Virus record (IMG/VR): IMGVR_UViG_3300046522_000252
Coordinates: 2,984 to 66,983 of that record
Reading direction: 5' to 3' (one strand)
Length of the DNA stretch: 64,000 bases
From: a virus
Shown here: one piece after another, positions 2,731 through 24,588 of the stretch
Layout: each line of letters begins with the position of its first letter
Position numbering within the stretch: the first letter of the stretch is position 1
Notes under the pieces: model-generated
Database searches by the model: none
What the model saw: the letters and a program-made list of their open reading frames with translations, nothing else
Told to the model about the DNA's origin: nothing
Program-made: the position numbers and the translations under genes

Positions 2731-3212
2731 CAGACTGCCGCCGCCAATTGCGGTTGCTGTTGATGGGCGAGACTGAAAAAGCGCTCTGTTCCGCGCTTCT
2801 CGCGGGTGATGAGCCCCGCCTGATGTAGCTCATACATCAGAGCATAGATCACTTGCTTGTCGGCCTGATCGGGGTTTTTCGGCCCAAACTGAGCGATCAG
2901 CTCTTTGGTCGACATTGCGTCACGCTGCCCAAGCAATTCAAGGACGCCCTCGCGCAGGCGCTTTTTTGCCTCGATATCGCGCAGGCGAGCCGTCCCGGTT
3001 TTTCGGTTGGCAGGAGTTTTCTTTGGCTGCTCGATCTGATGATGTTGCGGCTCTGCCACCTTGCGGATGGTGATCATGGGCGACGGTTTGGCGGCTTTGG
3101 CGGCTTTGCCGCCTCCGCCCATTTCCACGAACACCTGCAACGCCGATTCGAGCCGGAGGATTTCGGCGCGATGGTGGGCGATCTGATCTAGGATTTTCTC
3201 GGCGATATCCAT
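2730..3212 (-). CDS. Winged-helix DNA-binding protein
   Basis: C-terminal wHTH-like segment (MSTKELIAQ...YELHQAGLITREK). Confidence 0.55.
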   Translation of the reverse strand: MDIAEKILDQIAHHRAEILRLESALQVFVEMGGGGKAAKAAKPSPMITIRKVAEPQHHQIEQPKKTPANRKTGTARLRDIEAKKRLREGVLELLGQRDAMSTKELIAQFGPKNPDQADKQVIYALMYELHQAGLITREKRGTERFFSLAHQQQPQLAAAV

Positions 3213-3213
3213 G

Positions 3214-3492
3214 TCAGCCTCGGACGAAGACTTCGTAGCCGAGGGCTTTGAGAATGGACAGGACGGTTTGCGCGCGCGGCGATTTTGTCGTGCCGCTGGC
3301 TATATTCGAGACCGTCGCGGCGCAGACGCCGCTTTTATCGGCCAGCTTGGTATATTTCGTTTTCGAGGCGCGAATCTCTTTCGCCACGAATTCGCAAAGC
3401 TCATAGGCGTCGCGAAAACTGTACTCCTGGATTCCGATTTTCTCGCGTGCTGCCTTAAACCGCCGTGCTGATTCGAATTCAACGACCTGCAT
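3214..3492 (-). CDS. XRE-family HTH regulator
   Basis: TKLADKSGVCAATVSNIASG. Confidence 0.75.
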   Translation of the reverse strand: MQVVEFESARRFKAAREKIGIQEYSFRDAYELCEFVAKEIRASKTKYTKLADKSGVCAATVSNIASGTTKSPRAQTVLSILKALGYEVFVRG

Positions 3493-3644
3493 CTGCTTTT
3501 CCTCGCCTTAGTTGGGGGTTAACGCGGCTCGGAGCCCCGCTGTAGTTTCCTTTCATGACGCCACATTGGCGCGTCCCAAAGTTGCAGCCATATATCCGCC
3601 TGTCAATATTGAATTGCGCCAATTTGGCATTTACTATGCGTTGC

Positions 3645-3833
3645 ATGATGACAGTCAGCGAATACAAAGCGGCGCTCGCCGCCCTCGATTGGGATCACCG
3701 TAAAGCCGCCAAAGCGTTGGGGATCGGGCAAACTACGTCACGGCGCTACGCCGCCAAGGGCGCACCCAGGCATATCGCCCTGGCGCTGGAAGCGCTGATG
3801 AATCAAAAGCGCAAGAGGGAGAGAGCGGCATGA
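3645..3833 (+). CDS. Small HTH protein, divergent from the XRE gene
   Basis: HRKAAKALGIGQTTSRRY. Confidence 0.65.
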   Translation: MMTVSEYKAALAALDWDHRKAAKALGIGQTTSRRYAAKGAPRHIALALEALMNQKRKRERAA

Positions 3834-4087
3834 AAAGCCCACAAATCAACATACTGCCGAGGATCAACCAGGTCTGGATGGCCGTTTCCGTCGACGATGA
3901 CGGCAGTGAAGGGGTTTGCGCGATTCGGACAGACAACGGTTGGCTGCCTTTGGTGGCGGCCGATGAAAAACGCTTGGAATTCATCATTGAACAGGCCCGG
4001 TTTCTCGCTGAGGCCCAGCGCCGGATTATCCGCGTTGTGAAGATGTGCAGCCGCGAGGAGGTGGCCGTCATCGATGGCCGCAACTGA
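3830..4087 (+). CDS. Hypothetical protein
   Basis: 85 aa ORF with ATGA overlap. Confidence 0.6.
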   Translation: MKSPQINILPRINQVWMAVSVDDDGSEGVCAIRTDNGWLPLVAADEKRLEFIIEQARFLAEAQRRIIRVVKMCSREEVAVIDGRN

Positions 4088-16854: not shown

Positions 16855-17418
16855 CTATGCGATCTCATCGTCATCGTCGGGATCATTGGCGCCGTCGTCA
16901 CCGGCGGCCGGGTCAGCGTCACTGGCGCGGGCAGCTTGTTTCTTTTCCATCGCCGCTTTCCAGTCGGCGAGCATTTGCGCCTGGGCCATCTGCCATTGAT
17001 CGAGCCATACCCGGCCCGGCTCGGAGCCTTCATCGTAGGGGCAAGCGTCGGCACTCTTCCCGGCAAACCCGGCCGCCTCGCCTTCACGGGCGGCCCGTTC
17101 GACAAGCGGCTCCCGGCTAAAGTCCAGCTCGGTCTGGGCGCCAATAGGCAGGGCGAAATAACGGCCGATCTCGGCCCGGCGCCGTTGTTCGTCGACGACG
17201 ATTTGCGGGTCTTCAATCGTTGCGCAGCGCAGGCCGAAATCGATGTCGGACAGGATCACGCCATCGGTCTTGGCAAGCTTTCGAAGGCGCAAGCGCTCGA
17301 CGTTCTCCATCTTGCAGATTTCCGTTTGCGCTTGGATCGCGCGGAAATGGTGCATGTAGAGCGCCTTGGCTTGGGCTGGTGTCAGATCGTGGGAATTGTC
17401 GCCGATGGTCGCGGGCAT
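16855..17418 (-). CDS. Hypothetical protein with C-terminal Rmf/CrpP-like motif
   Basis: EGEAAGFAGKSADACPY....WL..W. Confidence 0.55.
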   Translation of the reverse strand: MPATIGDNSHDLTPAQAKALYMHHFRAIQAQTEICKMENVERLRLRKLAKTDGVILSDIDFGLRCATIEDPQIVVDEQRRRAEIGRYFALPIGAQTELDFSREPLVERAAREGEAAGFAGKSADACPYDEGSEPGRVWLDQWQMAQAQMLADWKAAMEKKQAARASDADPAAGDDGANDPDDDDEIA

Positions 17419-17527
17419 GTGGTCTTCTCCTTTGGGGTTGGAGTGGCCACCGCGTTGCAGGTCCGATAAACGCGGTGGCCACTTTTCCCGCCGGTCTTTC
17501 GAGCCACGGGAAATCAGGCAGGCGACA

Positions 17528-17776
17528 TCATGCCGCCGCCTCTTTGCCGTCCGGCGCCGGGCCAAAGACATCCGGGCGGAGGCTGTAACGGGAAACGCCG
17601 CTCATCTTTTCGACCTCAAGGACGCGGGTCGCGGGGACGATCACCCATTGCATGACGGCCTGTCGCTTGATCCCAAGTCTGCTGGCCAGCGGCACCGGGC
17701 CGCCAGCCCGCGTCTTCGCAAGCTCACAAGCGATTGCGCGCGGGTCCGTCAGAAAGGTTTCTTTTCTCATATCCAT
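17528..17776 (-). CDS. cro: Cro-like (YdaS) regulator
   Basis: AGGPVPLASRLGIKRQAVMQW...VSRYSLRPDVFG; divergent from the repressor. Confidence 0.8.
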   Translation of the reverse strand: MDMRKETFLTDPRAIACELAKTRAGGPVPLASRLGIKRQAVMQWVIVPATRVLEVEKMSGVSRYSLRPDVFGPAPDGKEAAA

Positions 17777-17886
17777 GCCACAGTGTAAGCAAAGATTGCC
17801 CGGTTGCACAATGGGGGTTTACGAAAAATTATTGGCAAGGTTGTATTGCTTATGGCAAAGTTGTGAGAAGGTTAGGGAATAAACCA
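17777..17886. promoter_or_regulatory. Divergent cro/cI promoter-operator region
   Basis: AT-rich gap with several GCAA/TTGC half-sites. Confidence 0.5.
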
Positions 17887-18330
17887 ATGGCGAGAGGGAA
17901 ACCCTCGGACGCTGCGCCGGTGTTACGGCAAAAAAGAATGAGCACAGGGAAACACGAAAGGGATCAGCTCGCCGACCAGGAATTAGGTGAGCGCATCCAA
18001 TACCTTAGAACGGAAATCCTCGGTATCGGTCGCCAGGCCGACTTTGCCGAGCGTCTTGGTGTGACGCGCGGTGCTGTCGGTAACTGGGAGGTCGGGAAAG
18101 GGGTGAAGCGCGCGAACCTCGAACGGATCGCTCAAACATTCACTGTCTCCCTCGTGTGGCTGACCACTGGGGGCGGTGCACCAATTAGCAGGCAGAGCAT
18201 TGATGCGAGACTTGAGCTGCTGCCGCCTGAAGAATATGACCCGCTCTATGAACACTTCCAGGCAATGATAGATAATCGTATGCGATTCCTAGAGCGAAAA
18301 AAGGCGGAAGCGAAGAAGAAAAAGCCTTGA
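17887..18330 (+). CDS. cI: CI-like XRE repressor without an evident S24 peptidase domain
   Basis: QADFAERLGVTRGAVGNWEVG...WLTTG. Confidence 0.8.
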   Translation: MARGKPSDAAPVLRQKRMSTGKHERDQLADQELGERIQYLRTEILGIGRQADFAERLGVTRGAVGNWEVGKGVKRANLERIAQTFTVSLVWLTTGGGAPISRQSIDARLELLPPEEYDPLYEHFQAMIDNRMRFLERKKAEAKKKKP

Positions 18331-18349
18331 AACTATTGAGGAAACCACG

Positions 18350-18799
18350 ATGGGACGAAGTTTCTATGAACCGCTAGCGTCGATAGACAACTGTTCGAAC
18401 GTATCCCCGCTGGCGGACTTTCGCATTAACAGGATAGACAACCAGTCAATTATGTATGCGTCGACGGACGACGGGCAGCAACTCGCCGCTCACATCCGTT
18501 TCGTCGACGAAGCCGCCTGGGTGAACCACGAAGCCAGCGTCAACGCTGCCGCGATGGTTTTACAATTGAGGCTTTCGCCGGACTACGGCGCTGGCCAGAT
18601 CGCCCGGATGATGCGCCGGGGCGTCCGCCCCGACGTCGAACATAGCCACGTCAAGTATTATCCGGCGACGGATGAGTACGGCTATATTTTGCAGTTCTCC
18701 AATCACGGCCCCGTGCCGATCCTTTTGAAGCAATCCGACATTGACGCTTTCCGCGTCAAGGAATGGATCGCCCGCTCCGCCGCACGCGCCGGGCAGTGA
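18350..18799 (+). CDS. Hypothetical protein, likely co-transcribed with the repressor
   Basis: GAGG RBS; followed by hairpin gggaggcg...cgcctccc. Confidence 0.6.
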   Translation: MGRSFYEPLASIDNCSNVSPLADFRINRIDNQSIMYASTDDGQQLAAHIRFVDEAAWVNHEASVNAAAMVLQLRLSPDYGAGQIARMMRRGVRPDVEHSHVKYYPATDEYGYILQFSNHGPVPILLKQSDIDAFRVKEWIARSAARAGQ

Positions 18800-19076
18800 T
18801 CCATCCACGGGAGGCGTGACCGCCGCGCCTCCCGCCGGGAGTAAAAATTTTACCCGGCAAAACTCCCTCCTCAATCACATTTTGCAATTTTTTCTTACTA
18901 GCCACTTGTGCTCCTCAGCAATCTTTGCTTTCATGTGGGCCTCACCACCGCTTTTCGAAGTCCCGGACAGATCGACCAGGCATTCAAGCGGAAGTGGGTT
19001 TTCGGACGCCTGAACGCTGAACCGAAGGGCTGACCGGCGTGAATCGCCGGTCAGCTCAAGTAGGAGGCTATGGCAA

Positions 19077-19298
19077 ATGACTGGCTTTGTGTTCGCCATG
19101 GCGCCGTGCCTCGGCTGCAACCGGATTTTCAGTTTTAACCCGGCGTTGGTTCCTTCGCTGATGTTCGACGGGGAACGCAAGCCGCTATGCGAGAAGTGTT
19201 TCGCATACCTCAACCGGAGGCGCACAGCGCTTCACTTGCCGGTGTTTGTCGCCCCACCAGGCGCCTATCAGCCGATGCCAGAGGAGGAATTGCCGTGA
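19077..19298 (+). CDS. Small Zn-finger protein
   Basis: CLGC...CEKC; AGGAGG RBS. Confidence 0.65.
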   Translation: MTGFVFAMAPCLGCNRIFSFNPALVPSLMFDGERKPLCEKCFAYLNRRRTALHLPVFVAPPGAYQPMPEEELP

Positions 19299-19807
19299 GA
19301 CAGGAAACGGTGCTTGGCGTGAAGCTCGCTGAAAAAGGCTTTGTGCCGCGCAACATCAAATTCCAGATCGCGATTGCGCGATATCAGAATAGCGGCGGCG
19401 AGTACGGCGTGGCGCTTGCCATGTTGAACGCCGCTTTTGGACGGGGAAGCGAAGGCCAGAAGCCGGAAGCTGCCGACAAGGCCGGGAACCGTGAGCCCGA
19501 CGCTGCGGCACGCAAGATGCCAGGCCATGCCAGGCGCGGTGCCGCCGCAATCGGCGCGGTGCAGGGCACGATGCAAAAATCCTTGTTCGACTCCACGATC
19601 TTGCCCGATGGCCGCACGTTGCGCGAGGTCAAATGGAGCGAATGCCCGCGCCTTTCGCGTCGCTATCGCTACCTCTCCCGCGTGCTGATGGCGATCCACA
19701 ACGTCGGCATTCCCGCCGATCCCAACGACACAATCGACAACCTCGTCAATGAGGACGGGTTGAAGGAAATCATCTCAGCGGTGGAGCGGTTCAATGACAT
19801 TCACTGA
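19295..19807 (+). CDS. Hypothetical protein upstream of the Tas-like gene; contains a degenerate array unit and a spacer match
   Basis: GTG start after GAGGAGG; overlaps the Tas-like ORF start. Confidence 0.65.
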   Translation: MRQETVLGVKLAEKGFVPRNIKFQIAIARYQNSGGEYGVALAMLNAAFGRGSEGQKPEAADKAGNREPDAAARKMPGHARRGAAAIGAVQGTMQKSLFDSTILPDGRTLREVKWSECPRLSRRYRYLSRVLMAIHNVGIPADPNDTIDNLVNEDGLKEIISAVERFNDIH

Positions 19808-21392
19808 TCGAAAGAATGATGGCGAAACGGGCCACGACATCAACGCCGATAAGTCCAGTCTGGAATTGCCCGCCTCGCCATCGCCGAAAGACGGGAAGGG
19901 TCCGCTTGCTTTTGCCGACAAGGCCAATGGAGAAATGCCCAACCCGTCCCCCAATGGCGAAACGGTCCATCGAGTGAATGCCGCCGAAACGGCTGCAATC
20001 GGCTTGACTGTTTCGCCGCCGAAAGACGGAAAAGGTCGCCCCGCGCTTGCCGATAAGGCCAAGGTTTCGGTGCCTGATCCGTCCCCCAAAGATGACGCGG
20101 CGGGCCACCCCGACTCTGCCGCTGAGGCCGTTGCAAGTGTGCCCGCCGCGTCATCGCCGAAAGATGAGTTGGGCCATTCAGAGCGTGCCGAAGAGGCCGC
20201 AGACCCGATGCCCGACCCATCGCCGAATGATGGCGCGGCTGGCCGGAAAGCAAATGCAACATCCAGTGAAATGTTGCCCGCCGCGTCATCAGCTATGATC
20301 GACCATCTGGCCGAGCTTCAGGTCCGCCGAAAATTCTATATCGGCGTCGTCAATCGGCAGACGAATGCGGCCAAAGCCCTTGTCCGCCGCGCGCTGGGCT
20401 GGCGCTATGATGCCGAGGACGCCGGGCGGGAAAAGCTGAACGCCCGCGCCGCGCGGATCGTGGCCGCTGCTTTGGCCGGGAAAGAGCAAAAGGCCGAGGA
20501 TGCGGCAGCATTCGGCGCGCTGGCGTTCGATCTGGCGACCATCGCGGCGGCCATCGAGCCTTGCACGACCGCCCGGCATGAAATCGAACTGGAAATGAAG
20601 CGCACCGCCCGCAAGCTGCCGGTGTGGTTCGCGTGGGCGAAGGACGTTAAAGGGCTAGGGGAACTTGGCCTCGCGGCCATCATCGCCGAGGCTGGCGATC
20701 TTTCCGGCTACCCCAAGAAGGGCCACCTCTGGAAACGCCTCGGCCTCGCACCGCTCGACGGCAAAGCCTTTTCGACGTGGCGGATGAAAGGTGGGCTGAC
20801 CGCCGAACAATGGACAGACGCCGGTTATTCGCCGCGCCGCCGGGCTGAAATCTATGCGGTGATTTCGGAACCGCTATTCCGCGCGCAATCGGTCGCCAGT
20901 GGATCATACCGCGCGATCTATGATCGCCGCCGGGAGCATACCGCCGAGACGCACCCGGACTGGACCAAAGCGCACAGCCACATGGACGGGCTGCGGATCA
21001 TGACGAAATATTTAATTCGCGACCTTTGGGCCGCGTGGCGGGCCTTGCATGCCGTGCCTATTCAGGCCGCTTCACTCGTGCCCGCCAACCTATCCGAGAA
21101 TCGCCGGGAGGCCAAAATCTGTCACCCTGAAAGGGTCGGAGGACGCGTGCCGACCGGCGAACCGAACGAGCGGGAGGCCGGGCAGGTTCCGCCTGAAAAG
21201 GCCGGAGTTTTTGTGCCGACCGCTCACCCCAACCGCCGCCGGGAGGCTAACGGACGGATATCTGAAACGGCCGAAAAAAAATTGCCGACCGGCGGCGGCG
21301 CGGAGGCTATCCCAGTCATGCCCGAAAAAGGCCAAAAGACGGGTGCCTCCGCGCCATCATCCGCCACCCAAGATCAAAGAGGTGAACTATGA
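19794..21392 (+). CDS. TasA-like protein (coiled coil + IS110/Nop-type RNA-binding domain, no nuclease domain) with array-encoded low-complexity termini
   Basis: Core about 20295-21040: KGLGELGLAAIIAEAGDLSGYPKKGHLWKRLGLAP...YRAIYDRRR...AHSHMDGLRIMTKYLIRDLWAAWR; no DEDD RuvC or HNH seen; flanked by dual-spacer arrays. Confidence 0.8.
   Translation: MTFTDRKNDGETGHDINADKSSLELPASPSPKDGKGPLAFADKANGEMPNPSPNGETVHRVNAAETAAIGLTVSPPKDGKGRPALADKAKVSVPDPSPKDDAAGHPDSAAEAVASVPAASSPKDELGHSERAEEAADPMPDPSPNDGAAGRKANATSSEMLPAASSAMIDHLAELQVRRKFYIGVVNRQTNAAKALVRRALGWRYDAEDAGREKLNARAARIVAAALAGKEQKAEDAAAFGALAFDLATIAAAIEPCTTARHEIELEMKRTARKLPVWFAWAKDVKGLGELGLAAIIAEAGDLSGYPKKGHLWKRLGLAPLDGKAFSTWRMKGGLTAEQWTDAGYSPRRRAEIYAVISEPLFRAQSVASGSYRAIYDRRREHTAETHPDWTKAHSHMDGLRIMTKYLIRDLWAAWRALHAVPIQAASLVPANLSENRREAKICHPERVGGRVPTGEPNEREAGQVPPEKAGVFVPTAHPNRRREANGRISETAEKKLPTGGGAEAIPVMPEKGQKTGASAPSSATQDQRGEL
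19818..20290 (+). ncRNA. TIGR-like stem-loop guide-RNA array, 7 units
   Basis: Unit: stem-GGCC(A/G)-N9-TGCC..GGCC(A/G)-N9-TGCC-stem; spacer A starts at 19835, 19904, 19970, 20039, 20108, 20177, 20246. Confidence 0.85.
21036..21355 (+). ncRNA. TIGR-like stem-loop guide-RNA array, 5 units
   Basis: Same architecture; spacer A starts at 21046, 21115, 21181, 21250, 21310. Confidence 0.8.
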
Positions 21393-22393
21393 CCATCGTC
21401 GACCCTTGGGAAAACTGGCGGGCCGCATTGGAAAACCCGCGCAAGATTGGCAGCGGGAAACTCGTTGTTCATCCGGGCGGCACGCCGTGGACTGGATTTT
21501 TCCGGGTCCGCAAAAAGGATGGCGACTGGGAACCCGTGCAGTTCTGGCAGGACGATCTAGGCTTGTGGTACGCGACGCGCTCCGGCAAGCCGGTCGATCC
21601 TGACCGCATCCCTGATCTGTTTCTATGGGCGGTGCGCCAGCCGATCAGCGAATTGGCCTTCGACCGCGCCACGGCGGGCAACGGTTGGGCCGACGAACCG
21701 GAGCGGACGCCGGGCATCGGCGACAATTCCGGCGAGGCCGACCCCTTCGACGCTCTGAATATTGAGTGGCTGGGCGAGAAGGAGCTGGTCGAAGGCTTCC
21801 TCAAAATCCCGATCACCTCGAAGGACGAAGCTGACCGCGCAGCCATTTGGGCGACGCGCCTCAACGGCATTGCCAAGAGGGCGGACAAGCTCCACGGCGA
21901 CGAAAAGGCGCCGGTCCTCGTCGCAGGGCGGCGCGTCGACTCCAAGTGGCGGGAGCTGCGCGAGCAGCCGAGCGGAATGGCAATCCTTCTGAAACGGCAT
22001 CAGGACAAATGGTTGCGGGAGCAAGAGAGGCTGGAGCGTGAGCGCGTTGCCGCCGCCGCCGTGGAGGCTGAGCGCTTGCGGATCGAAGCCGAGGAGGCCG
22101 CCGCCAAGGCGCGGACGCCGGACGACGTGGCGGAGGCTGGCGCCAAGGTTGCCGCCGCCCAGGAAGCCGAGCGCGAAGCAACATATCAGCGCCCGCAAGC
22201 CGGGCGAACCGGCGCCAAGACATCGCTCCGCACGTTCCGAACCGGGAAGATTGTCGACTTCGATACTTTCCTGATGGCGGCCAAAGATCATGACGAGATC
22301 AGGGAGGCGGCACAGACCACCGCCAACCGCCTCGCGCGGGCCAAGGTCACGCTGGCGGGGATGGAAATCGTCGAGGAACAACGGACGGTTTGA
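21389..22393 (+). CDS. Coiled-coil phage protein preceding the recombinase
   Basis: 334 aa, AGAGGT RBS, ATGA overlap. Confidence 0.65.
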   Translation: MTIVDPWENWRAALENPRKIGSGKLVVHPGGTPWTGFFRVRKKDGDWEPVQFWQDDLGLWYATRSGKPVDPDRIPDLFLWAVRQPISELAFDRATAGNGWADEPERTPGIGDNSGEADPFDALNIEWLGEKELVEGFLKIPITSKDEADRAAIWATRLNGIAKRADKLHGDEKAPVLVAGRRVDSKWRELREQPSGMAILLKRHQDKWLREQERLERERVAAAAVEAERLRIEAEEAAAKARTPDDVAEAGAKVAAAQEAEREATYQRPQAGRTGAKTSLRTFRTGKIVDFDTFLMAAKDHDEIREAAQTTANRLARAKVTLAGMEIVEEQRTV

Positions 22394-22404
22394 AAGGCAC
22401 GGAT

Positions 22405-23352
22405 ATGAACCAGGCAGTCGCAAGAACCGTAACCCAGGAACAGCCGCCGCGTTCGGTCCTCCACGACATGGCAAGTCGCTTCGGCATGGAGCCAGGCCCG
22501 TTCGAGCTGACCGTTCGCGCGCAGTGCTCTCCGGCACCGAAGAAAGGTGAGAGTTTTCGACCTCTCAGCAAAGAGGAATTCGCCGCCTTCCTACTGGTGG
22601 CGCGTCAGTATGATCTCAATCCGATCACCCGCGAGATTTTCGCCTATCCGAAGCGCGGCGGCGGCGTTGTTCCCATCGTCTCGATTGACGGCTGGGTTAA
22701 CCTCGTCAACTCACACCCGGCCTGCGATGGCTTCGAATTCGATTGGGTCGAGGATGAAAAAGGTCGGCCGATCTCTTGCACCTGCATTATGCACCGCAAG
22801 GATCGCAGCCACCCGACATCCGTCACCGAGTATCTTTCCGAATGCTGGCGCGACACGGACCCGTGGAAAATGCCCCACCGGATGCTCCGTCACAAGGCGC
22901 TGATCCAGTGCGCCCGCTATGCGTTCGGCTTCGCCGGTATCTTTGATGAGGATGAAGGCCAGCGGATTATCGCCGCTACCGCTCTGGAGGCCGCCCCGGC
23001 GCCGAGACCTCCCCGGCCGGGACCGGCGCCCGTCTTCGATCAGGAAGACGCTGAGAGGCCACAGGAAGGCCAGGGAATGGTCATCGATCACGAAGCGGAG
23101 CCGGTTAGCGGCGACGAGGCGGATGATGCCGCGAGCGGCGGCGGTGGCGTTGACGCTCTTGATCTCGACGCCCTGGCCTACTTCGACGAGCTGCGCGACC
23201 GTCTGGCCGAAGCGCCGGACCTGGAAACCGTCGAAGAGGTCTGGACGAACCTTGACCCGATGGCGCGCTTCGAAGGCGACGATGGCGGCCAAGACCTTTG
23301 CCTGAACATCAAAGACCGGCGCGTCAAACAGCTTGAGGAGAAAAGCAAATGA
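22405..23352 (+). CDS. bet: Bet/RecT-family single-strand annealing protein
   Basis: FAAFLLVARQYDLNPITREIFAYP...IVSIDGW...HRMLRHKALIQCARYAFGFAGI. Confidence 0.9.
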   Translation: MNQAVARTVTQEQPPRSVLHDMASRFGMEPGPFELTVRAQCSPAPKKGESFRPLSKEEFAAFLLVARQYDLNPITREIFAYPKRGGGVVPIVSIDGWVNLVNSHPACDGFEFDWVEDEKGRPISCTCIMHRKDRSHPTSVTEYLSECWRDTDPWKMPHRMLRHKALIQCARYAFGFAGIFDEDEGQRIIAATALEAAPAPRPPRPGPAPVFDQEDAERPQEGQGMVIDHEAEPVSGDEADDAASGGGGVDALDLDALAYFDELRDRLAEAPDLETVEEVWTNLDPMARFEGDDGGQDLCLNIKDRRVKQLEEKSK

Positions 23353-23621
23353 AAAACCCGGCGGTTGTTCGATTAGAGCGGCGATTGGGATCGCTGCTAG
23401 AGGAGGAGCTGAGTCTATGCGCGACCGCGCTTGAGCAGCAAGTGCTTATCGAATTGGCGATCAAGATGTCCATTGGCGCCTGGACTATCCGCTATCGTCA
23501 GGAGTCGCCGGAGCTGAAAGAGAAGTGCCTCACGGCTCTTGAGGGCTTTACCGGCTTTGTCGTGGACACATACCGCACGGCGCTGTTTCACCCTGAAAAC
23601 ACGAAAGGATCACGCCAATGA
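23349..23621 (+). CDS. Hypothetical protein
   Basis: Coupled ORF. Confidence 0.55.
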   Translation: MKNPAVVRLERRLGSLLEEELSLCATALEQQVLIELAIKMSIGAWTIRYRQESPELKEKCLTALEGFTGFVVDTYRTALFHPENTKGSRQ

Positions 23622-23947
23622 AACCGATTTTCGACAACTCCAGCCTGATCGATTGGTTGTCCGGGAAGCACCGTGACGAGCGCTATGACTACCTCGACGG
23701 TCACGTCTGCCTGCTAGCGCAATATCTGAACTATCGCGGATTCAAGGGCGCCGTCGTCGATGCTGAAGTGGCAATCCTACCGGATCGAATGGCACCCTAT
23801 GCCCTGCCGCGCACTTGGAATGAGATTGCACGGGCGAGGCCGTGGACGTTCGGCGCCGCGCTTGATCGCGCTCGGGAGGCGTTGACGCCAGCAAAGCTGA
23901 CGGGCCGTAACGCCGTGCTGGTGTTGACCGATGGAGTCGACCGATGA
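23618..23947 (+). CDS. Hypothetical protein
   Basis: Coupled ORF. Confidence 0.6.
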   Translation: MKPIFDNSSLIDWLSGKHRDERYDYLDGHVCLLAQYLNYRGFKGAVVDAEVAILPDRMAPYALPRTWNEIARARPWTFGAALDRAREALTPAKLTGRNAVLVLTDGVDR

Positions 23948-24588
23948 GTAACCGCCCTCTCAACAACATGACCGCGCGCATTGATCGCCTTCCGCGAGAT
24001 GCGCGCGGCTACCCGGTTCCCAAGTTTGTTCACTGGAAAGACGGTGTGCCGGATTTCCGCATTATCGATCCGTACCACATGGACAAGTGCATCAAGCGCG
24101 ATGCCTGCTGGATTTGCGGCGATACGATGGGAACGCACAAGGCTTTCGTCATCGGTCCGATGTGCTGCATTAACCGGATATCGGCGGAGCCGCCAAGCCA
24201 CCGCGACTGCGCAATCTTCGCGGCGACGAACTGCCCTTTCCTGACGACGCCAGCGGCCAAGCGCAACGAACGCGACTTGCCGGACACCAGGTTTGTTGCC
24301 GGGAAGATGATCGAACGAAACCCCGGCGTCACGGCGCTCTGGATGACGCGCTCGTATCAGCTCATGCACGTCAAGCGCGGTGTCCTTTTTATCATCGGCG
24401 ACCCGGACTCGGTTGATTTCTATGCACGGGGTAGGACGGCCACGCGCGCTGAGATCGAAACGTCGGTGACATCCGGCTATCCGCTCCTGATGGAAGAGGC
24501 AAAGCGCGAAGGCCGGGATGCAATCGACGAACTGGCGCGGTTGCGGCGGCGCTTTGACAATCTTCTCGATGAGGCGGTGCCATCATGA
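23944..24588 (+). CDS. Cys/His-rich phage protein
   Basis: RGYPVP...CWICG...EPPSHRDC...CPFL. Confidence 0.7.
   Translation: MSNRPLNNMTARIDRLPRDARGYPVPKFVHWKDGVPDFRIIDPYHMDKCIKRDACWICGDTMGTHKAFVIGPMCCINRISAEPPSHRDCAIFAATNCPFLTTPAAKRNERDLPDTRFVAGKMIERNPGVTALWMTRSYQLMHVKRGVLFIIGDPDSVDFYARGRTATRAEIETSVTSGYPLLMEEAKREGRDAIDELARLRRRFDNLLDEAVPS

Follow-up and report, generated by a model that had tools for sequence, protein, structure and literature searches.

A 64,000-nucleotide stretch of viral DNA (the window; positions 2,984 to 66,983 of IMG/VR record IMGVR_UViG_3300046522_000252) encodes a TIGR-Tas system in which an array of tandem dual-spacer guides is embedded in the coding sequence of a nuclease-less effector of the TasA type. 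The guide RNA (tigRNA) specified by the first unit of this array nearly matches an 18-bp site in the gene immediately upstream of tasA, and it is tentatively proposed here that the site is a cis target at which TasA would act as a non-cutting roadblock. The site may then be the first natural target for a TIGR-TasA system, and would represent a temperate phage's self-limiting, RNA-guided feedback on its own early operon, a proposal in which our confidence falls a little short of even. The features directly concerned are:

19351..19368, strand not assigned: candidate 18-bp target of the unit-1 guide (16/18 identical, 18/18 with rG:dT pairs, sole match of at least 16/18 in the 67-kb contig)
19818..19882, plus strand: unit 1 of the array, consisting of the 5′ stem arm, CCA, spacer A (19835-19843), loop, spacer B (19858-19866), TG and the 3′ stem arm
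19295..19807, plus strand: p170, a 170-amino-acid open reading frame (ORF) with a GTG start, which contains the candidate target and is a conserved partner of tasA

When the letters are compared directly, the 18-mer made of unit-1 spacer A and then the reverse complement of spacer B is identical to 19351-19368 at 16 of the 18 positions, and this match, first pointed out in an earlier note on the same DNA, is borne out on re-reading. The two differences, one at position 2 of spacer A and the other at position 1 of spacer B, are confined to its outer ends, and the middle 15 letters all agree. At both differences a guide G stands opposite a T, so that both are RNA G to DNA T (rG:dT) wobbles as had been claimed, and the match rises to 18/18 once rG:dT is scored as a pair. 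In the predicted pairing the left 9 bp of the site would engage spacer A through the bottom strand, and the right 9 bp would engage spacer B through the top strand. The site lies 450-467 nt from unit 1 on its upstream side, within the 500 bp given previously, and corresponds to codons 19-25 of p170. Its placement near the 5′ end of the operon likewise stands, as p170 is the second gene, upstream of tasA and of all 12 units. Among the 12 guides, unit 1 is the only one with a match of at least 16/18 in either opposite-strand geometry across the whole contig, a single sequence of 66,983 bp with a guanine-plus-cytosine (GC) content of 0.60 that represents the genome; with wobble-aware scoring, no window guide besides unit 1 rises above 16/18 in this contig. 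Self-regulating near-cognate guides are partly complementary to the 5′ part of the operon that encodes their effector, and the unit-1 guide shows this trait at the level of 16/18.

The arrangement of the two half-sites is that of TIGR-Tas targets. In Table S3 of Faure et al. (2025, PMC12045711) the wild-type target oligonucleotide consists of the letters of spacer A of tigRNA1 and then, directly adjoining on one strand, the reverse complement of its spacer B; spacer A plus the reverse complement of B is the target geometry, and the opposite-strand layout assumed in the earlier note is the published one. The converse order, the reverse complement of B followed by A, was rejected because the Table S3 oligonucleotides show A first; with it, none of the 12 guides matched the window at 16/18 or better. 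Published mismatch work indicates that mismatches at the spacer edges are better tolerated than central ones and that gaps of 1-2 bp between the halves are also tolerated. Spacer A is reported to tolerate a mismatch at position 1 well, with the centre of each half serving as the seed, and another published study describes positions 2 and 8 as tolerant. The protein TaTasR acted on a site in Escherichia coli wcaD with only 6/9 pairing to spacer A, binding it and cutting one strand (PMC12045711). Binding of 19351-19368 by a complex of TasA and the unit-1 tigRNA is plausible by this analogy, since both half-site centres are intact and the only differences are wobbles at the outer ends.

The array that supplies the guide and the protein that would carry it are encoded by one and the same ORF:

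19794..21392, plus strand: TasA-like ORF of 532 amino acids, with a core from about 20295 to 21050 (coiled coil and Nop-type domain) and both ends array-encoded
19818..20290, plus strand: upstream (N-side) stem-loop array of seven units with a period of 66-69 nt, from the in-frame layout and the covariance model
21032..21356, plus strand: downstream (C-side) stem-loop array of five units, from the same two lines of evidence

All 12 units are in frame within this ORF, are 56-62 nt long and recur at periods that are multiples of 3. Each is built from a 5′ stem arm, nine variable letters, a conserved loop that starts with YG and ends with CCA or CCG, nine further variable letters and a 3′ stem arm. 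The TG after spacer B, with which the 3′ stem arm starts, is invariant in 12 of 12 units, and spacer A is preceded by CCA, CCG, TCC or CTA. In the 12-unit alignment 86.7% of the stem cells are paired, as opposed to 26-44% when the partners are slid by one to three columns; compensatory changes on both sides are found in 10 of the 12 stem pairs, and the covariation score was reached by none of 500 shuffles, with the seven-unit alignment in agreement. A covariance model built from the 12 units (R2) replaced an earlier model (R1) that kept 3-nt flanks, so that overlapping neighbours dropped out. Run on the 64-kb window with expect values (E) up to 0.1, R2 recovers these 12 units as the only plus-strand matches (unit 1 at 44.9 bits, E 4.5e-6), and its one reverse-strand match is unit 5, which is perfectly palindromic. 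RNA folding z-scores are -3.07 for unit 1, with the outer stem formed, -7.30 for unit 5 and -6.11 for the last unit. A search of 17000-24000 against Rfam with E up to 1 gave no family. Together the 12 units make up a genuine TIGR array of the stem-loop type, with tandem dual-spacer guides, and the covarying stems, the CCA and UG boxes and the covariance model uphold the earlier note on this point. The 24 spacers (19835-21343) have a GC content of 0.51, against 0.60 for the contig, and one of them (21274-21282) reads as eight A followed by T.

The 532-amino-acid ORF has a single Pfam match, to PF02371 (Transposase_20), which is below threshold, and among PHROGs it matches phrog_4285, a family labelled 'transposase', at 1.2e-14. 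Searched with phmmer against the PDB it has one match, 9mty_A (TasR), with E 2.3e-5; 9mty is the structure that Faure et al. report for TasR with tigRNA and DNA. The core was modelled by AlphaFold from a 10-sequence alignment; the model has a mean predicted local distance difference test (pLDDT) score of 73.8, and when this model is compared with the PDB by Foldseek the top 10 matches are all TasR or TasH chains (probability 1.00, template modelling (TM) score about 0.5), followed by IS621, Nop5 and Prp31. No nuclease domain was found in the ORF by Pfam, and the remainder of the ORF outside the core is array-encoded. With the TasR/TasH fold and no nuclease domain, 19794-21392 encodes a nuclease-less TasA-type effector, and the Pfam, PDB and Foldseek results are in keeping with the non-cutting effector postulated from the sequence at the outset.

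In the mechanism that is proposed, the operon transcript would be processed to tigRNAs, and a TasA dimer loaded with the unit-1 tigRNA would unwind the 18 bp so that one spacer pairs with each strand. As TasA has no nuclease, it would stay bound as a roadblock, so that p170, tasA, the arrays and the exonuclease and RecT genes further on would be transcribed less; because the genes overlap from 19077 onwards, a block at 19351 would reduce expression of the entire early operon, tasA and the 12 guides included. The guide would be excised from the very transcript that it limits, which would close a self-limiting loop. The phage early operon would in this way come under negative feedback, moderated by the G:T wobbles at the two ends of the site, which would set the strength of the loop.

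Among known systems the closest is the stem-loop type of TIGR array, in which variable palindromes take the place of edge repeats (Faure et al., PMC12045711). Such arrays have been described within tas genes themselves, either terminal (5′ or 3′) or internal to the coding sequence and with the frame unbroken, and small-RNA sequencing has detected intragenic tigRNA units in one TasA (Xu et al., bioRxiv 10.64898/2026.09.09.750476), so that the window locus is a new member of a described kind. The TasA proteins of that study are also nuclease-less Nop-domain proteins, and TasA is reported there as a reversible, guide-dependent repressor of transcription that also acts within coding sequence. Three differences can be noted. 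No natural target is reported for those systems in the available part of the preprint, whereas the window offers a candidate cis target; CUU is reported at the stem bases, frequently in stem-loop tigRNAs though not as a strict requirement, whereas the inter-unit linkers of the window array contain no CTT at the stem bases; and the family of the upstream partner, p170, also hosts units here. The dual-repeat TIGR-TasR and TasH systems (Faure et al. 2025, PMC12045711) share the target geometry with adjoining halves, the CCA and UG boxes, the edge tolerance and the fold, but have fixed 36-nt units, conserved edge repeats and a nuclease domain, as opposed to the variable stems, 56-62 nt units and missing nuclease of the window system. 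In the full-text literature no natural cis target of a TIGR system was found, subscription-only papers lying outside this coverage, and in the accessible portions of the tigRNA literature the term 'self-target' is used only with regard to the avoidance of self-targeting, and autoregulation surfaces only in a reference list. A broader search gave no tigRNA paper on either idea.

More distant likenesses exist as well. The IS110/IS621 bridge RNA recombinases have a related Nop-type RNA-binding domain and split guides that read both strands; the window protein, in contrast, lacks their DEDD/RuvC-like catalytic domain, and a many-unit array stands in place of a single two-loop RNA. No transposon ends were noticed at the window locus, where no search was made for them. 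With regard to regulation, the tracr-L RNA of Workman et al. (2021) and the CreR-type RNAs reportedly are locus-encoded guides that send their own effector, without cutting, to a partly complementary site, and these sites are said to lie in promoters at the 5′ end of the effector operon, to be conserved across relatives and to bring about negative feedback. The window system differs from them in the effector family and in guide architecture, and its candidate site lies in coding sequence and is not conserved in relatives.

The chief alternative is coincidence, whereby the array and TasA are real but unit 1 was never selected for 19351-19368 and any true target lies elsewhere; this is judged to be nearly as likely as the cis roadblock, and the counts in this paragraph, like those from the related loci further below, weigh on its side and against the roadblock. 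When real spacers of the family were paired at random, 104 spacers gave 79 matches of at least 16/18 in 10,712 composites (0.088 per 12 guides), and 155 spacers gave 173 in 23,870 (0.087 per 12 guides, genome-wide), so that about 8-9% of realistic 12-guide sets would match this well somewhere in the contig. The chance of a 'few percent' across the window that the earlier note had put on such a match is accordingly somewhat low. In the mismatch search that it proposed, unit 1 is the sole guide to reach 16/18, and sets of shuffled spacers reach the same level in 12 of 400 cases (3%). Control geometries with no biological meaning, applied to the window spacers, also match at 16/18 or better (2 of 132 for mispaired spacers in geometry 2 and 1 of 12 for same-strand A+B), while mispaired geometry 1 (0 of 132) and same-strand B+A (0 of 12) do not. 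If a gap of 1-2 bp is allowed between half-sites, the window holds one match, that of guide C2 (2-bp gap, about 61106, minus strand, 16/18). Further gapped and second-geometry matches of real guides occur in relatives, two of them overlapping the guide's own unit, and all of these, that of guide C2 included, are judged to be at chance level against mispaired controls. The TIGR authors themselves caution that short spacers yield many false target matches and that most natural targets are indeterminable (bioRxiv 10.64898/2026.09.09.750476).

What speaks against coincidence is the place of the match and the position of its mismatches. The match falls within the 1.4% of the genome that runs from the start of the operon to the array (18850-19817, 968 nt), where random pairings of the 155 spacers reach at least 16/18 in only 3 of 23,870 composites (0.0015 per 12 guides). 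An exact central 14-mer occurs anywhere in 28 of 23,870 (0.014 per 12 guides). Both mismatches are G:T at the tolerated outer ends, and by simple arithmetic only 6 of the 153 possible placements put two mismatches within the outer two positions. With wobble-aware scoring of 104 guides in their own loci, 18/18 is attained by unit 1 only, against 0.3 expected from mispaired controls, and matches of at least 17/18 number 5 against 5.08 expected. Weaker matches of the 155-spacer random pairings show no local excess in 18850-19817. The unit-1 match is therefore unremarkable genome-wide (about 0.09) and is rare only when place and mismatch positions are counted. Proximity, which had been offered as the main support, is favoured by the local expectation; yet the place criterion and the seed criterion were both picked after the match was known. 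They are, on the other hand, what the roadblock model and the published seed data would predict. The fact remains that a single match carries the whole functional claim, and a scan of the plus strand at 18850-19076, directly ahead of the operon, returned no promoter-like site.

The related loci add further weight on the side of coincidence. A search with the TasA core gave 11 viral contigs, 7 genome loci and 14 metagenome loci, the genome loci being prophages in Pannonibacter (two), Bauldia, Zhengella, Aminobacter and Mesorhizobium and one Acidobacteriota metagenome-assembled genome. Stem-loop units are present in 31 of these 32 loci (the exception is L018), in or beside tas and its upstream gene, and R2 found 74 + 29 + 74 further matches in relatives, all on the plus strand, with some loci represented twice. 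Where units of close relatives are syntenic, their stems and loops persist while their 9-nt spacers are wholly different, for example in L003-L006 at 3340-3398, 3407-3464, 3479-3536 and 3929-3987, within coding sequence. No spacer is common to distinct loci, and the spacers appear from these comparisons to be renewed much faster than the surrounding DNA changes. Guides were then counted against their own loci, with expectations taken from 1,008 mispaired composites and with duplicate or irregular entries removed beforehand (L004 and L006, identical in DNA to L012 and L013; L040, part of the sequence found in L039; the gapped-spacer unit of L001 at 3625-3681; and the reverse-strand match on unit 5). 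Across 26 loci, 155 guides and 299,001 bases there were 8 matches of at least 15/18 as compared to 8.15 expected, and one of at least 16/18, that of window unit 1, as compared to 0.31. None of the 143 guides of the 25 related loci reaches 16/18 in its own locus. At this level the 29 guides of six prophages, each taken with 31-60 kb of context, had no match (0.25 expected), and at 15/18 they had 3 (3.82 expected). At the site homologous to 19351-19368 the relatives' own guides agree at only 9-12 of 18 positions, and pairing between guide and target was found to be neither conserved nor co-varying in related loci. Self-targeting is therefore no family trait, and the window match, if functional, would be lineage-specific.

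Contigs of runs X2-X5 were compared with 19000-21500 of the window. Those of run X2, which comes from another root metagenome, include a relative that is about 88% identical, and among its listed differences 101 letters replace 29 inside unit 1 (19836-19866) in a non-collinear manner, which also tells against the roadblock. A further listed difference replaces 395 letters of the upstream array (19902-20298) with 122, and the p170 of this relative has about 190 extra letters. These differences amount to turnover of array content between near relatives. Runs X3 and X4 each hold one contig piece, at low depth, that is identical to the window. Overall, the array, the nuclease-less effector, the geometry, the tolerated mismatch positions and the precedent of TasA as a repressor support the reading put forward in the earlier note, whereas autoregulation itself is reached only by inference and no related locus matches its own operon.

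The remaining explanations accept or reject the guide array in different ways. The unit-1 spacer pair might record how the spacers arose, as a copy of the phage's own DNA that has since drifted by two transitions, with no present function required. Both the nearness of the match and its correct two-strand geometry would suit such copying, and the origin of TIGR spacers is left unexplained in the published accounts, which know of no adaptation genes; but no other guide in the phage, the 25 loci or the six prophages matches its own surroundings, and no copying mechanism is known. This origin is unlikely, and it overlaps with the roadblock reading, as a copied guide would still bind the site. Somewhat less probable still is that unit 1 is a weapon against competing phages, its perfect target lying in a related phage's p170 orthologue, of which the phage's own copy is a diverged version, as the earlier note had suggested. 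Competition between elements is one of the roles proposed for TasA in the published work, and the homologous site in L007 resembles that of the window, a resemblance that follows from conservation of the protein; the homologous sites in other relatives differ widely. A degenerate 18-mer search of IMG/VR gave 15 stretches on unrelated contigs (GC 0.27-0.56), none adjoining a homologue of p170 or tas. Two matches came from five host genomes when one mismatch was allowed, and one exact match (DNA of GC 0.39) from 401 genomes belonging to the order of one host; all three are in unrelated DNA and none is beside a homologue. No perfect unit-1 target was found in the related phages, and blastn of 18800-21500 against INPHARED gave no match. 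Cross-targeting between the window and L001-L011 in geometry 1 amounts to 3 real matches as compared to 0.82 expected, none of them in a p170 or tas context. Terminal G:T mismatches, moreover, would not shield the phage's own copy, judging from the published tolerance, and the suggestion of a competitor's orthologous gene as the target finds no backing in these searches.

Finally, the units could be a protein repeat only, rich in proline, serine and lysine, with the palindromes as a by-product and no guide array at all. That the 12 units are in frame in one 532-amino-acid ORF, whose start and stop overlap its neighbours, would suit this explanation. It is nevertheless the least probable of those considered: compensatory changes keep the stems paired in spite of sequence difference, the scaffold of CCA, loop and UG is conserved while spacers differ between syntenic units, the adjacent core has the Tas fold, and in-frame intragenic tigRNAs have been described and sequenced in another TasA (bioRxiv 10.64898/2026.09.09.750476).

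The biological role of TIGR-Tas, and of nuclease-less TasA especially, is stated to be open in the available portions of two papers (PMC12045711; bioRxiv 10.64898/2026.09.09.750476). Two things make genuine TIGR targets hard to find: the short metagenomic contigs on which most loci lie, and the many false matches that 18-nt guides produce. The window, by comparison, offers a complete array in a 67-kb phage contig, with one near-cognate site in the published geometry, positioned so that a roadblock there would act back on the system itself. If the roadblock reading is true, the locus would show what a phage uses TasA for, and guide-RNA autoregulation, known for CRISPR-Cas, would extend to a second, unrelated family of RNA-guided proteins. 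If it is not, the locus becomes a worked example of the strength of cis match that is attainable by chance alone.

With regard to the operon setting, two further features accompany p170:

19077..19298, plus strand: first operon gene, a cysteine-rich ORF of 73 amino acids (ORF coordinates)
19471..19484, plus strand: loop-repeat motif of a decayed unit inside p170, read from the letters

The GTG start of p170 is preceded by a purine-rich ribosome-binding stretch. The protein has no Pfam or PHROG family and no Atlas match, its PDB profile matches are at chance level only, and IMG/VR holds no close relative of it. By tblastn, p170 homologues adjoin tas in 9 of the 11 viral loci (L001-L007, L009 and L011, at about 3000-3850), and in relatives the gene carries two to four intact stem-loop units in its middle. 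The decayed unit of the window p170 is reported by neither RNA model (E up to 1 for R1 and up to 0.1 for R2). It may be that p170 is an unrecognised component of this TIGR-TasA subfamily. From 19077 on, the genes overlap by a few bases as far as an exonuclease-like gene and RecT; these two follow tasA at 21389-23352, with 4-nt overlaps. Faure et al. (PMC12045711) speculate that DNA bending induced by TasA might aid phage recombination.

Ahead of the operon, and just past a 149-amino-acid ORF, the segment 18809-18851 contains an 8-bp GC-rich hairpin (18809-18816 with 18826-18833) with an A/T run some bases further on. By eye this is a possible terminator marking the operon boundary, although it was not among the calls of the terminator scan. 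What looks like a phage immunity region lies about 1 kb ahead of the operon, at 17528-18330, where a minus-strand ORF of Cro/YdaS type (17528-17809) is arranged back to back with a plus-strand, cI-like HTH_3 ORF (17734-18330), whose real start is probably later than 17734.

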